A DNA stretch of 64,000 nt, from assembly GCA_026016205.1 (NCBI GenBank), contig CP061209.1:634330-698329 (forward strand), written 5' to 3'. The DNA comes from Methanosarcinales archaeon. GTDB taxonomy: Archaea > Halobacteriota > UBA148 > JAUWXC01. The translations under genes were made by a program, and so were the position numbers. Below are positions 2,014 to 19,167 of this stretch, piece by piece. The notes beneath the pieces are model-generated. The model worked only from the letters and a program-made list of their open reading frames with translations. It searched no databases and had not been told where the DNA came from. Within the stretch, counting starts at the first letter, position 1; every line of letters starts with the position of its first letter.

Positions 2014-4062
2014 ATGAACGACTACTTAAAATACTTCCCAAAGAAGTCATTTTATCCCAATCAAAAAGAGGCGATAGAAGAGATTTATGATGCACTCTCA
2101 GAGCAAAAAATCGCCTTATTTGAAGGTGCATGTGGCACAGGAAAAACGCTGAGCGCGCTCGTTCCCGCACTGCACGTCGCAAAGCAACGCGGCAAAACCG
2201 TGGTAATAGCCACGAATGTTCACCAGCAAATGCTGCAGTTCATAGATGAAGCAAAAGATATCAAAAGCGTAGCAGATGTCGACGTAATCGTGCTGAAGGG
2301 CAAACTTCACATGTGCCCTGCTGAAAGAAGTTATGAAGAGTGCGACGTGCTCAGGGAGAATACATACGAATTGCTCAAATTGGAGCAAAATGCGAATCAA
2401 GAGATCGATGATGCTCGCATGAGAATTCTTAAGGAGCGGTCATGTGGGCACCTGCTTAATACGCTCAAGAGAGAGGATGACAGTTTTTACAAATGGCTCT
2501 TTTCAGAAGTTAGAACGCCAGAGGAGGTTGCGGAGAGGGCTTCCAAAGACGGAACATGCGGATATGAGTTGTTGAAGAGGGGGATGATGAATGCGGACTT
2601 GGTTATCTGCAACTACCATCACCTCCTGGACCCAGAAATCCTGACGATGTTTCTATCATGGTTAGGCTGTGGACTGGAAGATATTATAGTAATATTTGAC
2701 GAGGCACATAACCTGGAGTCGGCAGCCAGGGCGCATTCATCGCTGATACTGACTGAACGCACCATAGAAAGAGCACTGAACGAACTGACAGACATGGGCG
2801 ATCATGACGCCAAAGAGATTAGAAATCTCCTTCTTGAATTGAGAGAGGCACTGCGGGAAACATATGAATCCCGGTTCGCCTTTGGCGAAATGGAGCGTAT
2901 TGGCGCCGAGTGGCATGATATTAAGATACGAGAACCTGCCGACACTGAGGATGGTCTGACTACAAACCTGCGTGCTCGACTGCCCGACATTGTCGATTTA
3001 ATCGAAGATGTGTGTACCCTTGGTGCGAAATTTGACACGATATATCGCAACCAGTATAAAGAGGGGTTGTCTGATAGCAGAAGGGTTTCTCATCTGCTAA
3101 ATGTGGCAACGTTCCTCAAAAGATATTTTGAGTTGGCGGGCGACGCTGGATATTATCCGCTGATAAATGTAAGGCGTGAAGGGGGCGAGATATCAGGAAG
3201 AATCGAACTTTTTGCATGCATCCCAAAGAACGTGACCAAACCATTGTTTGACTCATTACATTCGGCGGTCCTAATGTCCGCCACTCTGCGACCATTTGAT
3301 GTCGTCAAAACGACGCTGGGCATCGACAGAGAGACAAAAAATATCGTGCATACGTCGCCATTTCCCAAGGAGAGAAGGCGCACCATGGCAGTGACGATTC
3401 CTCCGCTATTCCTGCGAAACAGGGATGACCAGGAGGTTATAGGCATTGTCACAAGTGTATTAGAAGATATTATAGAGCAATCGAATGGAAACGTCTTGAT
3501 TTTCTTCCCAAGTTTCAGCGAGGCGGTTCGGTATAAGGAGTTATTAGATGTCGATGTTCCTGTATTCCTAGATGAAATGGGCGTCTCAGCTACCAACGTC
3601 AAGGAGGATTTTTTCAGAATCGGCGAGTCCGGCGACAAGGCTGTGCTGCTCTCTTATCTATGGGGAACGCTGACAGAGGGTGTGAACTATAGGGATGATA
3701 GAGCGAGAGTTGTGGTCATCGTCGGAGTGGGGTATCCTGCCCTGGGCGATAGGATTAGGGCGATTCAATATTTGTATGACCATGAATTCGGCGCTGGAAG
3801 GGGGTGGCGTTATGCGATTGAGACCCCTATGATTAGAAGAGTTAGACAGGCAATGGGGAGAGTTATCAGGTCGCCGGAGGATTACGGCGCAAGGATGTTA
3901 TTAGATGTGCGATACACGAGTGAGTCCCCGAAAACGATGGGCAAATATTCAGTATACCCAAGTCTTCCGCCAGAAGAGAAAGAAGAAATAATAGATGTGG
4001 CACCTGGGAAGGTCAAGTATGCGCTGATGAATTTCTTTGATGATGTTCGAAAGGCGGACTGA
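2014..4062 (+). CDS. xpd: XPD/Rad3-family (DinG-like) Fe-S DNA helicase
   Basis: Walker A GACGTGKT, DEAH box FDEAHNLE, and four Cys (HMCP, EECD, RSCGH, GTCGY) spaced as in the XPD 4Fe-4S domain. Start moved to MNDYLKY (2014) because the track start at 1810 overlaps the polB start. Confidence 0.85.
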   Translation: MNDYLKYFPKKSFYPNQKEAIEEIYDALSEQKIALFEGACGTGKTLSALVPALHVAKQRGKTVVIATNVHQQMLQFIDEAKDIKSVADVDVIVLKGKLHMCPAERSYEECDVLRENTYELLKLEQNANQEIDDARMRILKERSCGHLLNTLKREDDSFYKWLFSEVRTPEEVAERASKDGTCGYELLKRGMMNADLVICNYHHLLDPEILTMFLSWLGCGLEDIIVIFDEAHNLESAARAHSSLILTERTIERALNELTDMGDHDAKEIRNLLLELREALRETYESRFAFGEMERIGAEWHDIKIREPADTEDGLTTNLRARLPDIVDLIEDVCTLGAKFDTIYRNQYKEGLSDSRRVSHLLNVATFLKRYFELAGDAGYYPLINVRREGGEISGRIELFACIPKNVTKPLFDSLHSAVLMSATLRPFDVVKTTLGIDRETKNIVHTSPFPKERRRTMAVTIPPLFLRNRDDQEVIGIVTSVLEDIIEQSNGNVLIFFPSFSEAVRYKELLDVDVPVFLDEMGVSATNVKEDFFRIGESGDKAVLLSYLWGTLTEGVNYRDDRARVVVIVGVGYPALGDRIRAIQYLYDHEFGAGRGWRYAIETPMIRRVRQAMGRVIRSPEDYGARMLLDVRYTSESPKTMGKYSVYPSLPPEEKEEIIDVAPGKVKYALMNFFDDVRKAD

Positions 4063-4228
4063 AAAGTTCTTCTGAGAATTTTGCGAAGTTTCAATCTTAT
4101 TTTATTGGATGTTGCGCTGTAACTACGAATTTACCATTGTATTTCTTAAGTTTTACCTCTAATTTCATTTTATTGGACCTTTATCTCAATCTTAAAGCTC
4201 TAAACCGCTTTAAAACATTATAATTTGT

Positions 4229-4714
4229 TTACCATTTAACAACGGGCTTCGATAGGAGAATATCAAAACTAATTCTTGGCTCTGTATTCTTTTGATTTGT
4301 AAATTTTAAATACTTCTTTGATAGGTGCTTCTCATCTAACATGCGGCTCATTTTACTGAAATTCTCCGATCTTTCTATGTTAATTTTCCCCCAATTAATT
4401 CTGGTAACAGTTCCAACGTTGGCGGGACCACCTTCTTTGTGAAGGACGTCTATTTTCTCTTTTATGATGAATAAAGGAAAAAGAGGTAATTTCACTATTT
4501 CGATTTTTAATTTGCCTTCAACCTTTGACTTTAATTTTCCTGTACCTTTACATTTACTGCACTCGCGTTTAGAGTCCGTATATACTATTGCCCCCTTATT
4601 GGGGTACCAACCTAGTCCTACTAAACCTCCTCCATCGCAATAAGGACATGTGAATAGTCTTTCCTCACACTTTGAGATTTCTCTAATCATCTTCTCTTTT
4701 CCTTGTTCCTCCAT
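4229..4714 (-). CDS. Hypothetical protein with two DnaJ-type CxxCxGxG zinc-finger motifs
   Basis: 161-aa ORF with CPYCDGGG and CSKCKGTG motifs. It is the only ORF in a visibly AT-rich 0.8-kb gap between convergent xpd and the geranylgeranyl reductase gene. Confidence 0.55.
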   Translation of the reverse strand: MEEQGKEKMIREISKCEERLFTCPYCDGGGLVGLGWYPNKGAIVYTDSKRECSKCKGTGKLKSKVEGKLKIEIVKLPLFPLFIIKEKIDVLHKEGGPANVGTVTRINWGKINIERSENFSKMSRMLDEKHLSKKYLKFTNQKNTEPRISFDILLSKPVVKW

Positions 4715-4865
4715 CTTCTTTCAAACCACTAATGGTAGTACTGTGATGTTCTATTTTTGTCTCTGGCAGTATTATCATCGAGTTGATATACATTTTTTAT
4801 TTTATGTTGATGCACTATATTTATTATATCTTTCCTGATAGCAAGGTGAAGGTGTTTTATCTTTA

Positions 4866-6029
4866 TTATCTCAGCGCCTTAGCAAAAACTCCCGACAATT
4901 TCAACAATCCCGGTTTTGCCATAATTAATTTCTTCGCCACCGCCGAAGGATAGTCCATGTCGCCATATTGAGATATGATGTCCAAAATCTCTGGATCCTC
5001 AAGCGTCTTGACTACTTTATCGTAATCTACATCACTCAACTTCCCCATAGCCTCATGAATCCTCATTCCAATCAATAATTCTCGCCCTATGGCAGACCTC
5101 CATCGCTTTTCGTACTCTACCAGGCGTTTCGCTGACGTATCGCCCTCTTTTACAGCGGCGGCTGCCACCTCTCCCGCAATCTTCGCGCATAGGGCACCGG
5201 CGTATATGCCCCCTCCGGACGTGGGTTTTACCTGCGCAGCAGCATCGCCGACGAGCATTAGTCCTTCGGCAACCGTTCGCTCGGGTGGACCAAGTGGAAT
5301 AGCACCTGCTTCAAAACCAAGATAGGAACCATGATATCTTTTTGATGCAATAGGGTGGGACTTTAGCATCTTCTTGAGATGTCGCAAGGGGTGAGCAGCA
5401 GCACATAACCCGATTCTTGCAACGCCGTCCTCAACTGGAACTGCCCAGGCAAAAAATCCTGGCGCCACCGAACCAATAAACACTTCGACAAAGTCCATAT
5501 CATGTGCATTATACAGTCCCTCGATTTGCACGCCGCCAAGAACCTTTTTTGCCCTGCCCAAGCCAGCCCATTTTGCGACCCTGCTGCTGACGCCATCTGC
5601 ACCGATGATGATTTTTGTGCTTACCTCCAAACTCTCGCCTTGGGCGATGATGTTGAGTTTTTCGTTCTTCAGGCCAGTCGCTTTAGCCTTGACCAAGAGG
5701 TCAGCACCTGCCTTAACCGCCTGTCTCGCAAGCTCCCTGTCGAAAATCTTCCTATCTATCACATATGCCTTGGTCTCTTTTCCATCGACTGTTATGCCTG
5801 TTCCATCCGGCGAATAAATGAAGGCGCCCCGTATCCTGTTCCGTATCCACCTTCCCAATCCAATCTCGCATTCATCCAAAGCCCTGTTGCTGATGAGGCC
5901 GGTGCATGCCTTGTTGCCAATTTCCTGGTGCTCCTCGATGAGAAGGACTGATGCGCCACCTTTCGACGCATATTTAGCTGCCATTGATCCAACTGGACCA
6001 GCCCCAACGACCACCACATCATATTCCAT
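4866..6029 (-). CDS. Geranylgeranyl reductase family flavoprotein (digeranylgeranylglycerophospholipid reductase-like)
   Basis: N-terminal FAD fold YDVVVVGAGPVGS and GADGVSSRV; length 387 aa is typical of archaeal GGR. Confidence 0.85.
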   Translation of the reverse strand: MEYDVVVVGAGPVGSMAAKYASKGGASVLLIEEHQEIGNKACTGLISNRALDECEIGLGRWIRNRIRGAFIYSPDGTGITVDGKETKAYVIDRKIFDRELARQAVKAGADLLVKAKATGLKNEKLNIIAQGESLEVSTKIIIGADGVSSRVAKWAGLGRAKKVLGGVQIEGLYNAHDMDFVEVFIGSVAPGFFAWAVPVEDGVARIGLCAAAHPLRHLKKMLKSHPIASKRYHGSYLGFEAGAIPLGPPERTVAEGLMLVGDAAAQVKPTSGGGIYAGALCAKIAGEVAAAAVKEGDTSAKRLVEYEKRWRSAIGRELLIGMRIHEAMGKLSDVDYDKVVKTLEDPEILDIISQYGDMDYPSAVAKKLIMAKPGLLKLSGVFAKALR

Positions 6030-14382: not shown

Positions 14383-15650
14383 GCACATCAAGAATTCCCG
14401 GATTTTACAAATTAGATGTACAAGAGCGGTTAAGCGTGGTGAAAAAACTCACACACCTGGATGAGGCATCTATTGACAGCATCAGTAAAACTGGAGCACT
14501 GAGCGTAGACCAGGTAGACAAGATGGTTGAAAATGCAATAGGCATCATGGAAGTGCCTTTGGGTATTGCCACCAATTTCCTGGTTAACGGAAAGGATTAC
14601 CTCATCCCCATGGCAACAGAGGAGCCGTCGGTCATCGCAGCAGCCAGCAACGCTGCCAAAATAGCAAGAGAGAAGGGTGGTTTTTCTGCCAGCACTACAG
14701 AGCCGATAATGATAGGGCAAATCCAGATGATGTGCGAGACGCCAGAAGAGGCGAAGAGTGCCATTCTGGGTGCAAAAGAGGAGATTTTGGCATTGGCCAA
14801 CGAGCAGAATCCCGTTTTGGTGAAGTTTGGCGGTGGAGCAAAGGATATAGAGGCAAGGATTATTGAAACTCCTGCTGGCAAGATGGTGGTCACGCATTTG
14901 ATGGTCGACTGTAGGGATGCAATGGGCGCCAATGCAGTCAACACGATGTGCGAGGTGGTAGCGCCTTTAATCGAAAAGCTGACCACTGGTAAAGTATACC
15001 TCAGGATAATTTCAAATCTCGCGGTCAAACGATTGGCAAGAGCAAAGGCGACTTTCTTCAAAGAGGCGTTAGGTGGAGAGGGTGTCGTAGATGGCATTAT
15101 TATAGCACAAAGATTCGCAGAGTCGGATGCGTACAGGGCAGCGACCCATAACAAAGGGATAATGAACGGCATCTCTGCAGTGGCGCTGGCGACCGGGAAT
15201 GACACCAGGGCAGTAGAGGCGGGTGCACATGCATATGCGTCCTTTTCCGGCAGATACAGACCTCTGACGACCTACGAGAAAAATGAGGATGGCGATTTAG
15301 TCGGCGCCATTGAACTGCCCATCGCTGTCGGTACTGTTGGTGGCGCCACAAAGGTGCATCCCACCGCAATGGCCAATATGAAAATTTTAGGAGTGAAAAC
15401 TGCCTCTGAGCTGGCACAGGTAATAGCATCAGTCGGCTTGGCTCAAAACCTTGCTGCGTTGAGAGCACTTTCCACGGAGGGCATACAGAGAGGACATATG
15501 TCCCTTCATGCGAGAAACATAGCAGTCGTGGCAGGCGCAACCGGGGATTTAGTCGAGGAAGTTGCGAGAATTATGACAGAGGAAGGGAAAATACGAGTAG
15601 AAAGAGCTAAGGAGATTCTTAATGGACTCTCCAAAAAGGGACAAAAATGA
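14379..15650 (+). CDS. hmgA: HMG-CoA reductase, class II (bacterial type)
   Basis: [52 protein letters not shown] and [15 protein letters not shown]. These are class II signatures as in the Pseudomonas mevalonii enzyme. Confidence 0.9.
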
Positions 15651-16438
15651 GGGACAAAATCACTGTTCCAGATATAATTGACATGAAGAAGTCTGGAAAG
15701 AAAATTACGATGCTCACCGCCTACGACTCGCTTTTGGCAAGCATTCTGGACGAGGCAGGAGTTCATATCCTGCTGGTGGGCGATTCACTGGGCAATGTAG
15801 TTCTGGGATACGAGAATCCCATTCCGGTGACGATAGAGGATGTCGTTCATCACGTACGAGCGGTATCCAGGGGTACGAAGAATTCGCTAGTAGTGGGAGA
15901 CATGCCCTTTGGCACATATTTCACCGTAGAAGATGCATTGAGAAATGCCGGAAGGTTGATTCAGGCAGGAGTAGAAGCCGTCAAACTCGAAGGTGGCACA
16001 GTAGTTAAAGACCAGATTGTGGGGCTGATGGAAATGGGCATACCAGTCATGGGACATGTTGGGTTAACACCGCAGTCCATGCATAAAATGGGCGGCTATA
16101 AAGTCCAAGGTAGGACACCCGAAACGGCAAAAAAGATATTGAACGATGCGAAGGCGGTTGAAAGGGCAGGAGCATTCGCAGTTGTGTTAGAAGGAATGCC
16201 ATCAGACCTCGCGAGCAAGATAACAGACGAATTAAAAATCCCGACGATTGGGATAGGCGCAGGACCCCACTGCGATGGACAAGTCCTGGTGACACATGAC
16301 GCTCTGGGCTTTTATGAAAAGACGCCCAAATTTGTGAAGAAGTATGCAAGTCTCAGGGAATTGATATTGAGCGCAGCAAAAATGTACAAAAAGGAAGTCG
16401 AAGAAGGTAGGTTTCCAACCGAAGAGTACAGTTATTAA
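15647..16438 (+). CDS. panB: 3-methyl-2-oxobutanoate hydroxymethyltransferase (ketopantoate hydroxymethyltransferase)
   Basis: [39 protein letters not shown] and GHVGLTPQS; 4-nt overlap with hmgA. Confidence 0.9.
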
Positions 16439-16440
16439 AG

Positions 16441-16485
16441 TTAGAGCGGGTACTCCACGATATTTTCGGAGATTGTGCGCTCGCC
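16441..16485 (-). pseudogene. Degenerate duplicate of the pyrI 3' end (last 14 codons plus stop)
   Basis: The reverse strand reads GERTISENIVEYPL*, compared with [14 protein letters not shown] at the real pyrI end (17789-17833). That is 36/45 nt identical, in the same frame, with the stop codon aligned. Confidence 0.6.
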
Positions 16486-17788
16486 TAACACAGTATAAAA
16501 GGTTCGCCCTACGGGCTCACCCAAATTTTTGCTTCGCAAAAACTTCTTTTATCCACAACGTTAGAAGAAAAATCATGCCTTACTCTGAGACCTCCGCTTG
16601 TGCACATTATTATGATGGTCGTAACAGTAGATTACCAGCCAGTAGATTCCTACCATCTTTACTACATTTGATCCTGTTACTATTTTCCATCTGGGTGACC
16701 ACGAATTATTTATCTCTTCTTTTTGTGGGCGCCTTTTTCAGCGTCTTTTTGTATTGTTTAATCAAAAACTTTACTGTTTGTTTTAAATCTTGATTTTTTG
16801 AGTATTTCTGCAAAGTCGCATAATACTCTTCTCTATCTTGTATTGAAATATTTATTGGAGGATATTTATTCTTAATAAGAATAAAATTCAATAACAATCT
16901 TCCTACCCTTCCATTACCGTCTTGGAATGGATGTATGTATTCAAATTGGTTGTGGATTATTGCCGATAAAACCAGAGGCTTAAACTTGCTTTTATTTTCT
17001 TTATGCCAATCAACCAAATCTTTTAATGCATCCATTAATTCATTAGCAAGAACACCTGCATGTATGACTTCTCCTTTTGAACTTTTTATAACAACTTCCA
17101 GAGTTCTAAATTCTCCTGCAAAATCTTTTGAGCCTTCAAAACATAGTTTATGGATCTTTTTTATTAATCCTAAAGACAAATCCTCTTTTGTTTTTTTGAT
17201 ATATTCAACAGCTTTTGCCACGCCTTTTGTTTCCAGTTCCTCTGCATTTGTTGCTTGTTTTTTGCGAAGAATTTCAGGGACTTCGTCTTCTGCAACTGTT
17301 GAACCTTCTATCGCGTTTGTGTTATAAACAAATTCTTCTGTGAATCTTTGCCAGTCTTTCTGGTCAAGATGAATTATTTTTAGTTTCTTATCATACTTGT
17401 TAAGTGCTTCAACTTGTTTTTTAGTTAAACTGAACAAAAACACTCGTGTATTTAATTCCTCTAACACTTCAAGAATACTTTTTTCTGCTTTTTTCTTTGC
17501 CGTCTCCAATCCGTCCCTGCTCAAATCTTTGCCCAGATAACGCCTTATTTTTTTTACCTTGTCTTGATCCCTGTAAGAATGAACAAGATAGTATTTTATC
17601 CCATACTTCGTTTTTCTTTTTTCAACATACATATTATCACAATAGGTGCCCACATTTATGAAACTTTCCTATCTTGTGGTCACCTCAGCTATTCAGAGGA
17701 GACTTATGTTCCTGAACATAATTTTGGAAGAGCAGCTTTAAGAAGTCCACAGATGGATTCTTGCAGGCACCGGGAGTTAAAGGTGACT
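16486..17788. mobile_element. AT-rich ~1.3-kb islet (possible remnant of an integrated element) carrying a Fic gene
   Basis: Visibly lower GC than the flanks. It is bracketed by the imperfect direct repeat formed by the pyrI 3' end and its remnant. No integrase or transposase is present. Confidence 0.4.
16706..17653 (-). CDS. Fic/DOC family protein (probable AMP-transferase), class II with an N-terminal inhibitory motif
   Basis: Fic motif HPFQDGNGRVGRLL and inhibitory-helix motif TNAIEG (S/T-x-x-x-E-G/N) upstream. An alternative start MYVEKRK lies at 17632. Confidence 0.85.
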   Translation of the reverse strand: MGTYCDNMYVEKRKTKYGIKYYLVHSYRDQDKVKKIRRYLGKDLSRDGLETAKKKAEKSILEVLEELNTRVFLFSLTKKQVEALNKYDKKLKIIHLDQKDWQRFTEEFVYNTNAIEGSTVAEDEVPEILRKKQATNAEELETKGVAKAVEYIKKTKEDLSLGLIKKIHKLCFEGSKDFAGEFRTLEVVIKSSKGEVIHAGVLANELMDALKDLVDWHKENKSKFKPLVLSAIIHNQFEYIHPFQDGNGRVGRLLLNFILIKNKYPPINISIQDREEYYATLQKYSKNQDLKQTVKFLIKQYKKTLKKAPTKRRDK

Positions 17789-18253
17789 TCACAACAGGTG
17801 CTCCGCGATGTTTTCGGAGATTATGCGCTCGCAGTAAACACACCTCAAGCACACGCTCTTTCCATGCTTGCTGATGATGAACCTGGATGCTACTGGCTCA
17901 TTTGTGTTTGATATGCAGTTCGGGTTGGCACACCTCACCAGGCCCTCGATTACGCTTGGCAGCGCTACTTTGTGCTTCTCCTTCACTTTGTATTCGCGAA
18001 CAATGTTAATTGTGGCAGACGGAGCAATGAGCGCAATCTTATCTACTTCATGAGGCGCCAGCTCCCTGCCCTCTACCTTGACGATGTCCTTTGTTCCCAT
18101 TGCCTGACTGGGCACGTTCGTGACCGCGCTTATCACCGCATCTGTTTGCCCAATAATGCCAAGAATTTTAAGAACGTTAAGCGCCTGCCCAGCTGCGATG
18201 TGGTCAATAACCGTTCCGTTCTTAATTGGCCTAACACGCAGCTCCTTCTTCAT
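17789..18253 (-). CDS. pyrI: Aspartate carbamoyltransferase regulatory subunit
   Basis: 154 aa; [15 protein letters not shown] and C-terminal Zn-domain cysteines (CANPNC, CLRCVYC); 4-nt overlap with pyrB. Confidence 0.9.
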
Positions 18254-19167
18254 CTCGCCCCCAACACGAGGGACATGACCGCCATCCTCACGGGCACACC
18301 ATAGAAGGCCTGCTGGAAATATCTTGCATGCTTCGTCGCATCCACATCTGCATCTATCTCGTTTACTCTGGGAAGAGGATGCATGATAATCATGTCATCC
18401 CTAGCGTCTTTTAGCAACTCTGCCGAGATGCGGTAGGTCCCAGCAACCTTCTGATACTCGCTTGGGTCTGGAAACCGCTCTTTTTGAATTCTGGTCATAT
18501 AGAGCACATCTGCATTAGGGATTACGTCTTCCAGTTTAGTGGCCTCAGACACGTCGACTCCTCTCTTCCTCAAATCGCCCTTGATTTCGTCTGGCATCTT
18601 TAACTGCTCAGGGGATACCAAGGAGATCTTAGCGCCGTATAACGATAATGCATAAGCAAGGGAGTGAACGGTTCTGCCATACTTAAGGTCACCAATCAGT
18701 GCGATGTCTAAATTTTCAAGATGGCTCTCTCGCTTGATTGTGTACAAATCCAGCAAGGTCTGCGTAGGATGATGGCCTGCTCCGTCACCAGCGTTTATGA
18801 CCGGGATATTTGATATCTCTGCAGCCATCCTTGCCGAGCCTTCTTTGGAATGCCTGAGCACGATGGCATCCGCGTATTCGCTCACTACTCTAATCGTATC
18901 AGCGAGTGTTTCACCTTTGGAGGCGGAGCTGGTCTCGGTAGAAATCATGTTGACCGTCTCGCCGCCCAGGCGCTTCATCGCAGTTTCAAAAGATAGTCTG
19001 GTGCGCGTACTCGATTCGTAAAACAACAGTGCCAAAATCTTTCCAGCCAACAAATCAGACTTTTTACCTTTGGCAAAAGACTCAAGTTCTTCGGCTTTTT
19101 TAAGAATAGCGTCAATCTCCGCCCTGGAGAAATCTCTCATCGAGATGATGTGCTTTTTAGTGAACAT
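18250..19167 (-). CDS. pyrB: Aspartate carbamoyltransferase catalytic subunit
   Basis: [15 protein letters not shown] and HPLPRV motifs. Confidence 0.92.

Follow-up and report, generated by a model that had tools for sequence, protein, structure and literature searches.

How does a gene of foreign origin come to lie between two convergent genes that are separated by only 2 nt in a sister species, and leave both of them intact? The question is raised by a small islet with a Fic gene between panB (ketopantoate hydroxymethyltransferase) and pyrI (aspartate carbamoyltransferase regulatory chain) of a Methanosarcinales archaeon (GTDB lineage Archaea; Halobacteriota; UBA148; JAUWXC01; GenBank assembly GCA_026016205.1). 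Its genome, here G000, consists of a single contig (CP061209.1, here C1) of 987 kb (0.99 Mb) with a GC content of 0.462. The window is the whole stretch of 64,000 nt that was analysed (G000:C1:634330-698329), and positions given below without a contig refer to it. A first-pass annotation, made from the letters of the window alone, had described an AT-rich Fic islet bracketed by a duplicated, decaying copy of the pyrI 3' end. The answer towards which we lean, with moderate confidence, is that the 1,348-bp unit is a horizontally acquired cassette without an integrase which was inserted by a Campbell-type crossover in the tail of pyrI. The flanking genes and the two copies of the tail are laid out as follows:

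15647-16438, plus strand: panB, the left flank (Pfam Pantoate_transf, E = 1.4e-111).
16441-16485, minus strand: the displaced original pyrI 3' end, a pseudo-tail that reads GERTISENIVEYPL followed by a stop; it is the left copy of the direct repeat and matches 17789-17833 at 36 of 45 nt.
17789-17833, minus strand: the working pyrI 3' end, the right copy of the direct repeat, with a last codon and stop derived from the insert.
17789-18253, minus strand: pyrI, 154 aa (Pfam PyrI, E = 2e-32; PyrI_C, E = 3.6e-16).

The claim that the stretch next to panB copies the end of pyrI, with frame and stop in register, held up on proper alignment. The core of the repeat (16449-16484 against 17797-17832) is an ungapped run of 36 nt with 89% identity, and the spacing of the copies is 1348 nt. 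Local alignment of the two tails scores 53, as compared to a mean of 18.6 (standard deviation, SD, 2.3; maximum 39) for random segments of the same genome and of 19.9 (SD 2.0) for shuffled versions of the insert. With a score about 15 SD above both random segments and shuffles, a chance origin of the 45-nt similarity was rejected. The similarity stops directly after CTCGC (16485/17833), and the first base of the codon for the zinc-ligand Cys thus falls outside the duplicated stretch. The Cys-to-Gly difference that had been read as loss of the ligand in the copy is therefore an effect of the boundary and not of decay. Both the repeat and the islet are single-copy in the G000 genome. A DNA transposon, insertion sequence or miniature inverted-repeat transposable element was considered and rejected, as the islet ends carry no inverted repeats, the duplication is 45 nt long and the unit occurs once.

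The islet is an insertion relative to an empty site. A comparison of the panB-pyrI intergenic region among relatives had been suggested, and in the sister species G003 the panB stop is indeed followed after 2 nt by the pyrI stop; in G010, which belongs to another family of the order, the aligned ends of panB and pyrI are 9 nt apart. The islet is found at the same place in seven independent assemblies, namely G000, G001 (locus L052) and five further ones (JGI samples 3300029811, 3300029812 and 3300039051; GCA_013282375.1; ERZ3612386), and in four of these five the contigs, named L091 through L094, reach the pseudo-copy. The same arrangement in seven independent assemblies led us to reject a chimera with a contig of a DPANN archaeon, and the internal non-coding DNA, which is common to all islet copies, indicates that they are of one origin. 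A PyrI-based metagenome scan for the state of the junction in close strains returned only relatives at no more than 69% identity.

Which of the two copies is the newcomer can be told from their ends. The panB stop (TAA, 16436-16438) is followed by 2 nt and then by TTA, a layout shared with the empty site of G003, and since this layout and the genus-type EHLF-TAA ending are kept beside panB, the panB-adjacent copy is the original pyrI tail, displaced and now dead. The pseudo-copy ends in EHLF and a stop in G001 and in L091-L094, like the real PyrI of G002 and G003. The working tail, on the other hand, ends in EHLL with a TGA stop in all islet carriers and has islet DNA before it (GGTGACT joined directly to TCAC...), which means that no less than the last codon and the stop were brought by the insert (F-TAA to L-TGA). 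Seen on the DNA, the stop-proximal four nt are TCAC in the working tail and TTAG both in the pseudo-copy and in the empty site. For annotation purposes the pseudo-tail should not be called a gene, and the stop and last residue of pyrI should be recorded as derived from the insert. The wording that the copy is decaying was right in part. In L091-L094 the repeat is better preserved, with 41 of 45 positions identical overall and 39 of 40 in the core, and the pseudo-tails of G000 and G001 differ at seven of 45 positions although the dS (synonymous divergence) of Fic between the two genomes is 0.034; these extra differences may stem from short-patch recombination as much as from decay.

The DNA enclosed by the repeats is foreign in composition. 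The 1303 nt between the copies (16486-17788) have a GC content of 0.346 against 0.462 for the genome, and the 1-kb segment 16601-17600 belongs to the lowest 0.85% of all 1-kb segments of the genome by GC. About 1 kb of the 1.35-kb islet is taken up by the cargo gene:

16706-17632, minus strand: class II Fic gene, 308 aa, the cargo (Pfam PF02661, E = 8e-20).

This open reading frame (ORF) has a GC content of 0.32 and a GC content at third codon positions (GC3) of 0.27, compared to a GC3 of 0.48-0.61 in the neighbouring genes, and the AT-richness noted at first reading is thus borne out. So is the reading of the single gene as a class II Fic. The PF02661 score is 71.9 bits against a cut-off of 24, the core motif HPFQDGNGR occupies residues 234-242 (HPFQDGNGRVGR starts at 234), and TNAIEG at residues 105-110 aligns in phmmer with the inhibitory TVAIEG helix of human FICD, which is also the closest solved relative (E = 2.6e-22). 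The assignment to class II holds because the core motif and, N-terminal to it, TNAIEG are found in the same chain. The protein matches the PADLOC SoFic model PDLC03963 (E = 3.1e-39, residues 71-302 on positions 30-268 of a profile of 361), but reaches only 63 bits with the NCBIfam SoFic equivalog, the cut-off of which is 550, and is accordingly a relative of SoFic and not an equivalog. The protein is most likely an AMP-transferase that inhibits itself and serves in defence or addiction, an activity that would help the cassette to persist. Between the two clades of islet carriers the ratio of nonsynonymous to synonymous divergence (dN/dS) of the gene is about 0.2 at a dS of about 0.10, which indicates that it is maintained by purifying selection.

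As to the source of the gene, there are thousands of relatives of about 308 aa outside the genus, with 64-70% identity among the 120 best; the few named ones among these protein relatives are from Woese-, Pace- and Nanoarchaeota. The homologous loci of the species set are 57-67% identical, most of them have a GC content of 0.27-0.40, and most carry DPANN labels (Woese-, Pace-, Nano-, Nanohal- and Aenigmatarchaeota), the other labels being Methanosarcinales for seven bins, an Omnitrophota bacterium for one and only archaeon for two. At the nucleotide level the similarity to DPANN Fic genes is 72-73% and is confined to 16688-17689, while genomes of the same order contain only Fic paralogues at no more than 35% identity. 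The cargo is, on these comparisons, likely to be a horizontally acquired gene of DPANN type that moved into a lineage of larger archaeal hosts.

The mechanism that we propose would begin with an extrachromosomal, probably circular DNA which carried the cargo together with a short segment of homology to the tail of the gene it was to enter. One reciprocal crossover inside the homologous tail (Campbell type) would then duplicate the tail and leave both convergent genes intact, and selection in a very compact genome would keep only those insertions that preserve gene ends. The crossover step is one that we infer from comparing the repeats and the islets. Its agent would most likely have been the homologous recombination system of the host, or else a recombinase that acted in trans, rather than an integrase of the unit's own. 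Inspection of ORFs and Pfam matches in the seven islet copies revealed no integrase, no fragment of one and no other element gene, and it is this lack of any remnant, together with the lack of room for an integrase, that favours the host or a recombinase in trans. The sole tyrosine recombinase genes of G000 are located at C1:193.8 kb and C1:819 kb, the nearest being at least 168 kb from the islet.

The first-pass annotation had seen here the footprint of an integrative element that targets the 3' end of a gene and supplies a replacement end. The insertion and the replaced gene end stand; the part of an integrase-bearing element is unsupported, no integrase being present in the seven islet copies and four more islets of the same build being free of integrase as well (see below). 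A decayed virus, plasmid or element resembling an integrative and conjugative element, with its own tyrosine integrase and an attP that mimicked the pyrI 3' end, and reduced by deletions to an addictive or useful Fic gene, is nonetheless an origin that we regard as unlikely but not as far-fetched. Direct repeats at a conserved gene 3' end with a replacement end are the classical footprint of an integrase, the cargo is foreign and low in GC, and the two tyrosine recombinase genes of G000 could act in trans. Moreover, an integrase does occur next to a homologous Fic gene elsewhere: in the DPANN contig L097 (GCA_053534855.1, contig JAIYKI010000009.1, 6001-8287) a tyrosine integrase of 400 aa is encoded directly downstream, and on the same strand, of a Fic 68% identical to that of the islet, with no convincing direct repeats found around the pair, and in two other DPANN contigs a weak integrase hit is situated 4.5 kb from the homologous Fic. 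The islet itself speaks otherwise. The 350 nt of it that are not Fic hold a remnant of a vapC gene instead of element genes, and the comparison with viruses and plasmids that had been suggested came back without support, as neither the att-like repeat core nor the left end of the islet has a match in IMG/VR, no close relative of the Fic protein is present there, and phage and plasmid records give only bacterial Fic proteins at no more than 35% identity.

Whole-genome self-comparison of G000 placed the islet in a wider context. At least four more small islets of this genome are bracketed by duplicated gene 3' ends, in frame, and three of the four are toxin-antitoxin modules (AbiE, HicAB and VapBC):

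C1:61588-63415: islet B, repeat of 67 nt with 87% identity, cargo AbiEi/AbiEii.
C1:571328-572547: islet D, repeat of 155 nt with 84% identity, cargo three small ORFs, downstream of a gene for a TaqI_C specificity domain (methylase tail).
C1:573440-574720: islet C, repeat of 63 nt with 95% identity, cargo HicA/HicB and a winged-helix protein.
C1:518643-519571: islet F, repeat of 75 nt with 92% identity and a spacing of 854 nt, cargo vapB/vapC.

No mobility genes were found in islets B, C, D or F. Islets B, C and D are low in GC, and the regions around them are specific to G000. In islet B the copy that looks original is the one beside the downstream gene, with the longer and typical ending ...TIEWF.... 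Islet F is flanked by a 221-aa gene and by a 125-aa gene convergent with it, and its empty site, with a single copy of the repeat, is present in G001 (C4:9948-10022); the 75-nt repeat spans the ends of both convergent genes, so that each gene keeps an intact end. Together with the Fic islet this makes five islets, all of 0.85-1.8 kb and all without an integrase, which is unexpected from the independent decay of large elements, and neither is the variation in repeat length, from 45 to 155 nt, in favour of such decay.

A further direct repeat of 75 nt with 97% identity (C1:523926-524000 and C1:580505-580579) was noticed in the same region of the genome; its copies are 56.6 kb apart and enclose the HicAB and methylase-tail islets, and it could represent either a pair of tRNA-like paralogues or the two termini of a large element.

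The longest of the repeats is informative about how the duplication arose. The two copies of islet D show 30 differences over 153 sites, no stop among them, and their ratio of nonsynonymous to synonymous polymorphism (pN/pS) is 0.38. When change was random, 78% of trials acquired a stop and only 0.5% reached a ratio as low as this. Such constrained divergence identifies the second copy as a diverged functional allele from another lineage and not as a decayed duplicate, and a tail that was brought in by the incoming DNA agrees with a crossover within shared homology but not with a staggered cut. This bears on a second explanation, according to which breaks staggered by about 40-45 nt in the pyrI tail were filled in, so that host sequence was copied to both sides of the insert and the differences came later. 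The published class of such insertions is after all named for target duplication, the 40-nt core of L091-L094 differs at one position only between the copies, and in the Fic and vapBC islets the differences fall in halves that are no longer functional. The purifying selection under which the 155-nt copies of islet D diverged (p about 0.005) runs counter to it, as does the departure of the working copy of the Fic islet, and not of the dead one, from the genus-type ending (L-TGA against F-TAA). To our knowledge no enzyme makes cuts staggered by 45-155 nt, and we hold target-site duplication of this kind to be improbable.

The DNA close to the two junctions is less tidy than the repeats. The parts of the interior that are not Fic, and the end of pyrI beside the repeat, comprise:

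16486-16705, no strand assigned: the non-coding left part of the islet, GC 0.40, beginning with CTAACACAG.
17745-17782, plus strand: a vapC (PIN) remnant of 38 nt, identical at 32 of 38 positions (84%) to an internal part of the vapC that fills the junction in G002 (L053, 5440-5477).
17834-17895, minus strand: a diverged pyrI segment beside the repeat, with 18 differences in 62 nt between G000 and G001 against six in 358 nt in the rest of pyrI.

The match of the vapC remnant is in the same orientation (BLAST E = 2e-7; score 26 against 10 +/- 1.2 for shuffles) and ends 6 nt from the new pyrI stop; from the sequence it would be either the leftover of an earlier occupant of the junction or a piece of the donor DNA. 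As for the left part, CTAACACAG possibly continues the repeat for a short way in degenerate form. No match to 16486-16705 was obtained elsewhere in the genome, in the G002 insert, in the DPANN loci upstream of 16688 or in Rfam; its fold z-scores of -0.65 and -1.75 are unremarkable, and it differs by 4.5-5.9% among G000, G001 and L092. No tRNA or known RNA was found at the islet ends. A plus-strand ORF of 106 aa (16473-16793), which runs from the pseudo-tail into the Fic 3' end, was not accepted as a gene: Pfam gave no hit, its frame is shifted in G001, and it lies antisense to Fic where the two overlap.

The 62 nt at 17834-17895 are 29-31% different between G001 and the other carriers, as opposed to 1.4-1.7% in the rest of pyrI, and judged from this contrast the segment is a patch of recombination that adjoins the repeat. 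Between G000 and G001 the final 107 nt of pyrI (17789-17895) are 11-30% diverged, and the G001 version resembles G002 and G003. Patches of this sort are not restricted to pyrI: G000 and G001 are 97-98% identical overall, and their alignment contains many patches of 100-400 nt with 83-91% identity, from which it follows that short-patch recombination is frequent in these genomes and that the record of boundaries is blurred. Such mosaic patches were also seen between the two genomes in hmgA (about 14940-15240) and in panB (about 15840-16100).

A third explanation builds on this end of the islet. Linear donor DNA, consisting of the 3' part of a relative's pyrI, the vapC remnant and Fic, would have entered by one homologous crossover in pyrI and one illegitimate join which happened to land 45 nt inside the host tail, a case of homology-facilitated illegitimate recombination. 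In six of the seven carriers the 62 nt upstream of the repeat do hold an unusual pyrI allele (ASRFII[SG]KHGKSV[CR]LRC), as if more than 45 nt of pyrI had come in, and the vapC piece adjoins the tail as vapC does in G002. A microhomology, TAA(A)CACA, is available at the left junction, but is located beside the junction and not at it. Given that mosaic patches at 10-17% divergence are common along the G000-G001 alignment, the pyrI patch may have nothing to do with the insertion, and each of the five islets would need a separate accident, although in all of them the reading frames of the neighbouring genes are preserved. We consider entry by linear donor DNA very improbable.

There are also several observations that weigh against the insertion of an integrase-free cassette by a Campbell-type crossover. 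No excised circle and no donor molecule was seen. Only one of the five islets, that with the 155-nt repeat, statistically supports an incoming copy of the tail; the positional test of copy differences in the vapBC islet gave a p of about 0.07, and the side-specific differences of the Fic and vapBC islets fit the decay of non-functional halves after plain duplication equally well. The vapC piece beside the new tail points to a history more complex than one clean event, and frequent short-patch recombination obscures where the boundaries once were. The neighbourhood of Fic and integrase in L097 leaves room for an integrase-borne ancestor. Finally, the model leaves the origin of the first tail-bearing molecule unexplained.

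The junction that received the Fic cassette was surveyed in 11 relatives of the same order in which both gene ends, of panB and of pyrI, were found. The arrangement of the two genes is conserved in the order, and the gap between them ranges from 2 nt to about 1550 nt, that of G000 being 1348 nt:

G003: 2 nt.
G010: about 3 nt.
G007 and G009: 70-90 nt.
G011, G012 and G013: 300-340 nt.
G002 (locus L053): 669 nt, with a MazE/AbrB-type antitoxin and a PIN toxin (vapBC).
G001: 1348 nt.
G005 (locus L056, G005:C1): about 1450 nt, a low-GC insert of 1.45 kb with two predicted membrane or secreted proteins.
G004 (locus L055, G004:C1): about 1550 nt, with a 157-aa ThsB-type TIR protein (PADLOC, E = 7e-14) and a 264-aa radical SAM protein at 3523-4945.

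In G004, which belongs to another family of the order, the end of the radical SAM ORF overlaps the end of pyrI. The panB-pyrI junction thus appears, from its contents, to be a repeatedly used site, with other defence or toxin-antitoxin cargo in relatives. No significant pyrI or panB pseudo-tail was found in the inserts of G002, G004 and G005 apart from a tandem of the panB tail in G005, where a 27-nt duplication of the panB 3' end (L056, about 3285-3338) stands before the insert, in frame and with both stops (PTDQYSYD, stop, TTDQYSYD, stop).

Some further features of the locus and of the Fic family in G000 should be recorded. The convergent pyrI is followed by pyrB, and upstream of the Fic gene a possible promoter element can be read:

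18250-19167: pyrB (Pfam OTCace_N and OTCace).
17654-17663, minus strand: a candidate archaeal TATA-like box, TTTCATAAAT, read from the sequence and ending 21 nt before the ATG at 17632.

The probable start of Fic is this ATG (308 aa), which is preferred to the alternative GTG at 17653 (315 aa) because gene callers and nearly all homologues start there. The TATA-like stretch is identical in all seven islet copies and would give a leaderless or short-leader Fic mRNA. Two further Fic paralogues of G000 (C1:343959-344849 and C1:907482-908072) are 31-33% identical to the islet protein, and the former, which G001 has as well, sits within a further small patch of low GC.

Taken by itself, the Fic islet would be an ordinary case of horizontal transfer with a neat footprint; its five-fold recurrence in a 1-Mb genome is what makes this mode of insertion experimentally approachable. 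The movement of toxin-antitoxin and single-gene defence modules without mobility genes is poorly understood, and this genome offers five clean natural examples, two of them with empty sites in sister species (G003 for Fic, G001 for vapBC). The locus shows that a compact genome can accept foreign genes at a 2-nt gene junction without damage to either gene. A broader and much more tentative suggestion is that toxin-antitoxin and defence genes might travel through this small-genome lineage as integrase-free cassettes that hitchhike on gene tails, each bearing a copy of a host-gene 3' end, entering by a single host-made crossover and able to loop out between the repeats, and that some of these genes may derive from DPANN archaea perhaps living on the hosts. 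If that is true, selfish or defence genes would have here a general way into genomes with almost no intergenic space.

Several known systems resemble the islet in part. Class II Fic proteins such as FICD (HYPE) and SoFic share with its product the core HPFx(D/E)GNGR and the N-terminal inhibitory (S/T)xxxE(G/N) helix in the same chain; unlike FICD, the islet Fic has neither the tetratricopeptide repeats nor the membrane part, and its family is a distinct one of proteins of about 308 aa, very common among DPANN archaea. Among integrative elements, phage 21 and e14 of E. coli integrate into the 3' end of icd and supply a replacement end, but they have their own integrase and measure tens of kb. 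The parallel is close in that a housekeeping gene is targeted at its 3' end, a similar but non-identical end is brought along, the gene stays intact and a pseudo-copy remains beyond the insert; the difference is that the islet unit is only 1.35 kb and without integrase. Archaeal elements of the SSV and pTN3 type are likewise flanked by direct repeats that reproduce the 3' part of their target, usually a tRNA gene, and encode an integrase, which in the SSV type is split on integration; the repeats of the islet are of the same nature, although its target is not a tRNA gene and it contains no integrase. Cis-mobilizable elements (CIMEs) are islets between att sites; their integrase is lost, and they rely on a related element that acts in trans. 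Like them, the Fic islet has att-like direct repeats and cargo only, with no recombination module, but no related element with an integrase that makes use of the pyrI tail was found in the genome, in relatives, in IMG/VR or in phage or plasmid records.

The closest counterpart is the insertion with long target duplication described for restriction-modification (RM) gene complexes (Nobusato et al., 2000, Gene 259:99; Furuta, Abe & Kobayashi, 2010, NAR 38:2428, PMC2853133). These units have no mobility genes, are flanked by repeats of more than 30 bp which often span start or stop sites, and have empty sites in relatives; they were seen in several bacterial phyla, whereas no archaeal case passed the survey, and the authors suggested that breakage by RM enzymes is possibly involved (PMC2853133). 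That survey took inserts of less than 20 kb between direct repeats of more than 30 bp (Furuta et al., 2010). The present islets show every structural feature asked for there, and differ in not carrying restriction (R) and modification (M) genes. In the case of Fic the likeness extends to a unit of 1348 bp, a 45-nt repeat that is unique in the genome, an empty site in G003 (and G010), the lack of a mobility gene and a deviant GC content. The host here, by contrast, is an archaeon, the cargo consists of Fic, AbiE, HicAB, VapBC and small ORFs, and the second copy of islet D is a diverged functional allele and not a plain duplicate. As such cargo does not cut DNA, double-strand breaks made by the cargo are ruled out as the general cause. 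The Fic insert is best filed as an insertion with long target duplication, probably by a crossover of Campbell type in the gene tail, and this mode of insertion, known from bacterial restriction-modification systems, therefore occurs in archaea as well.

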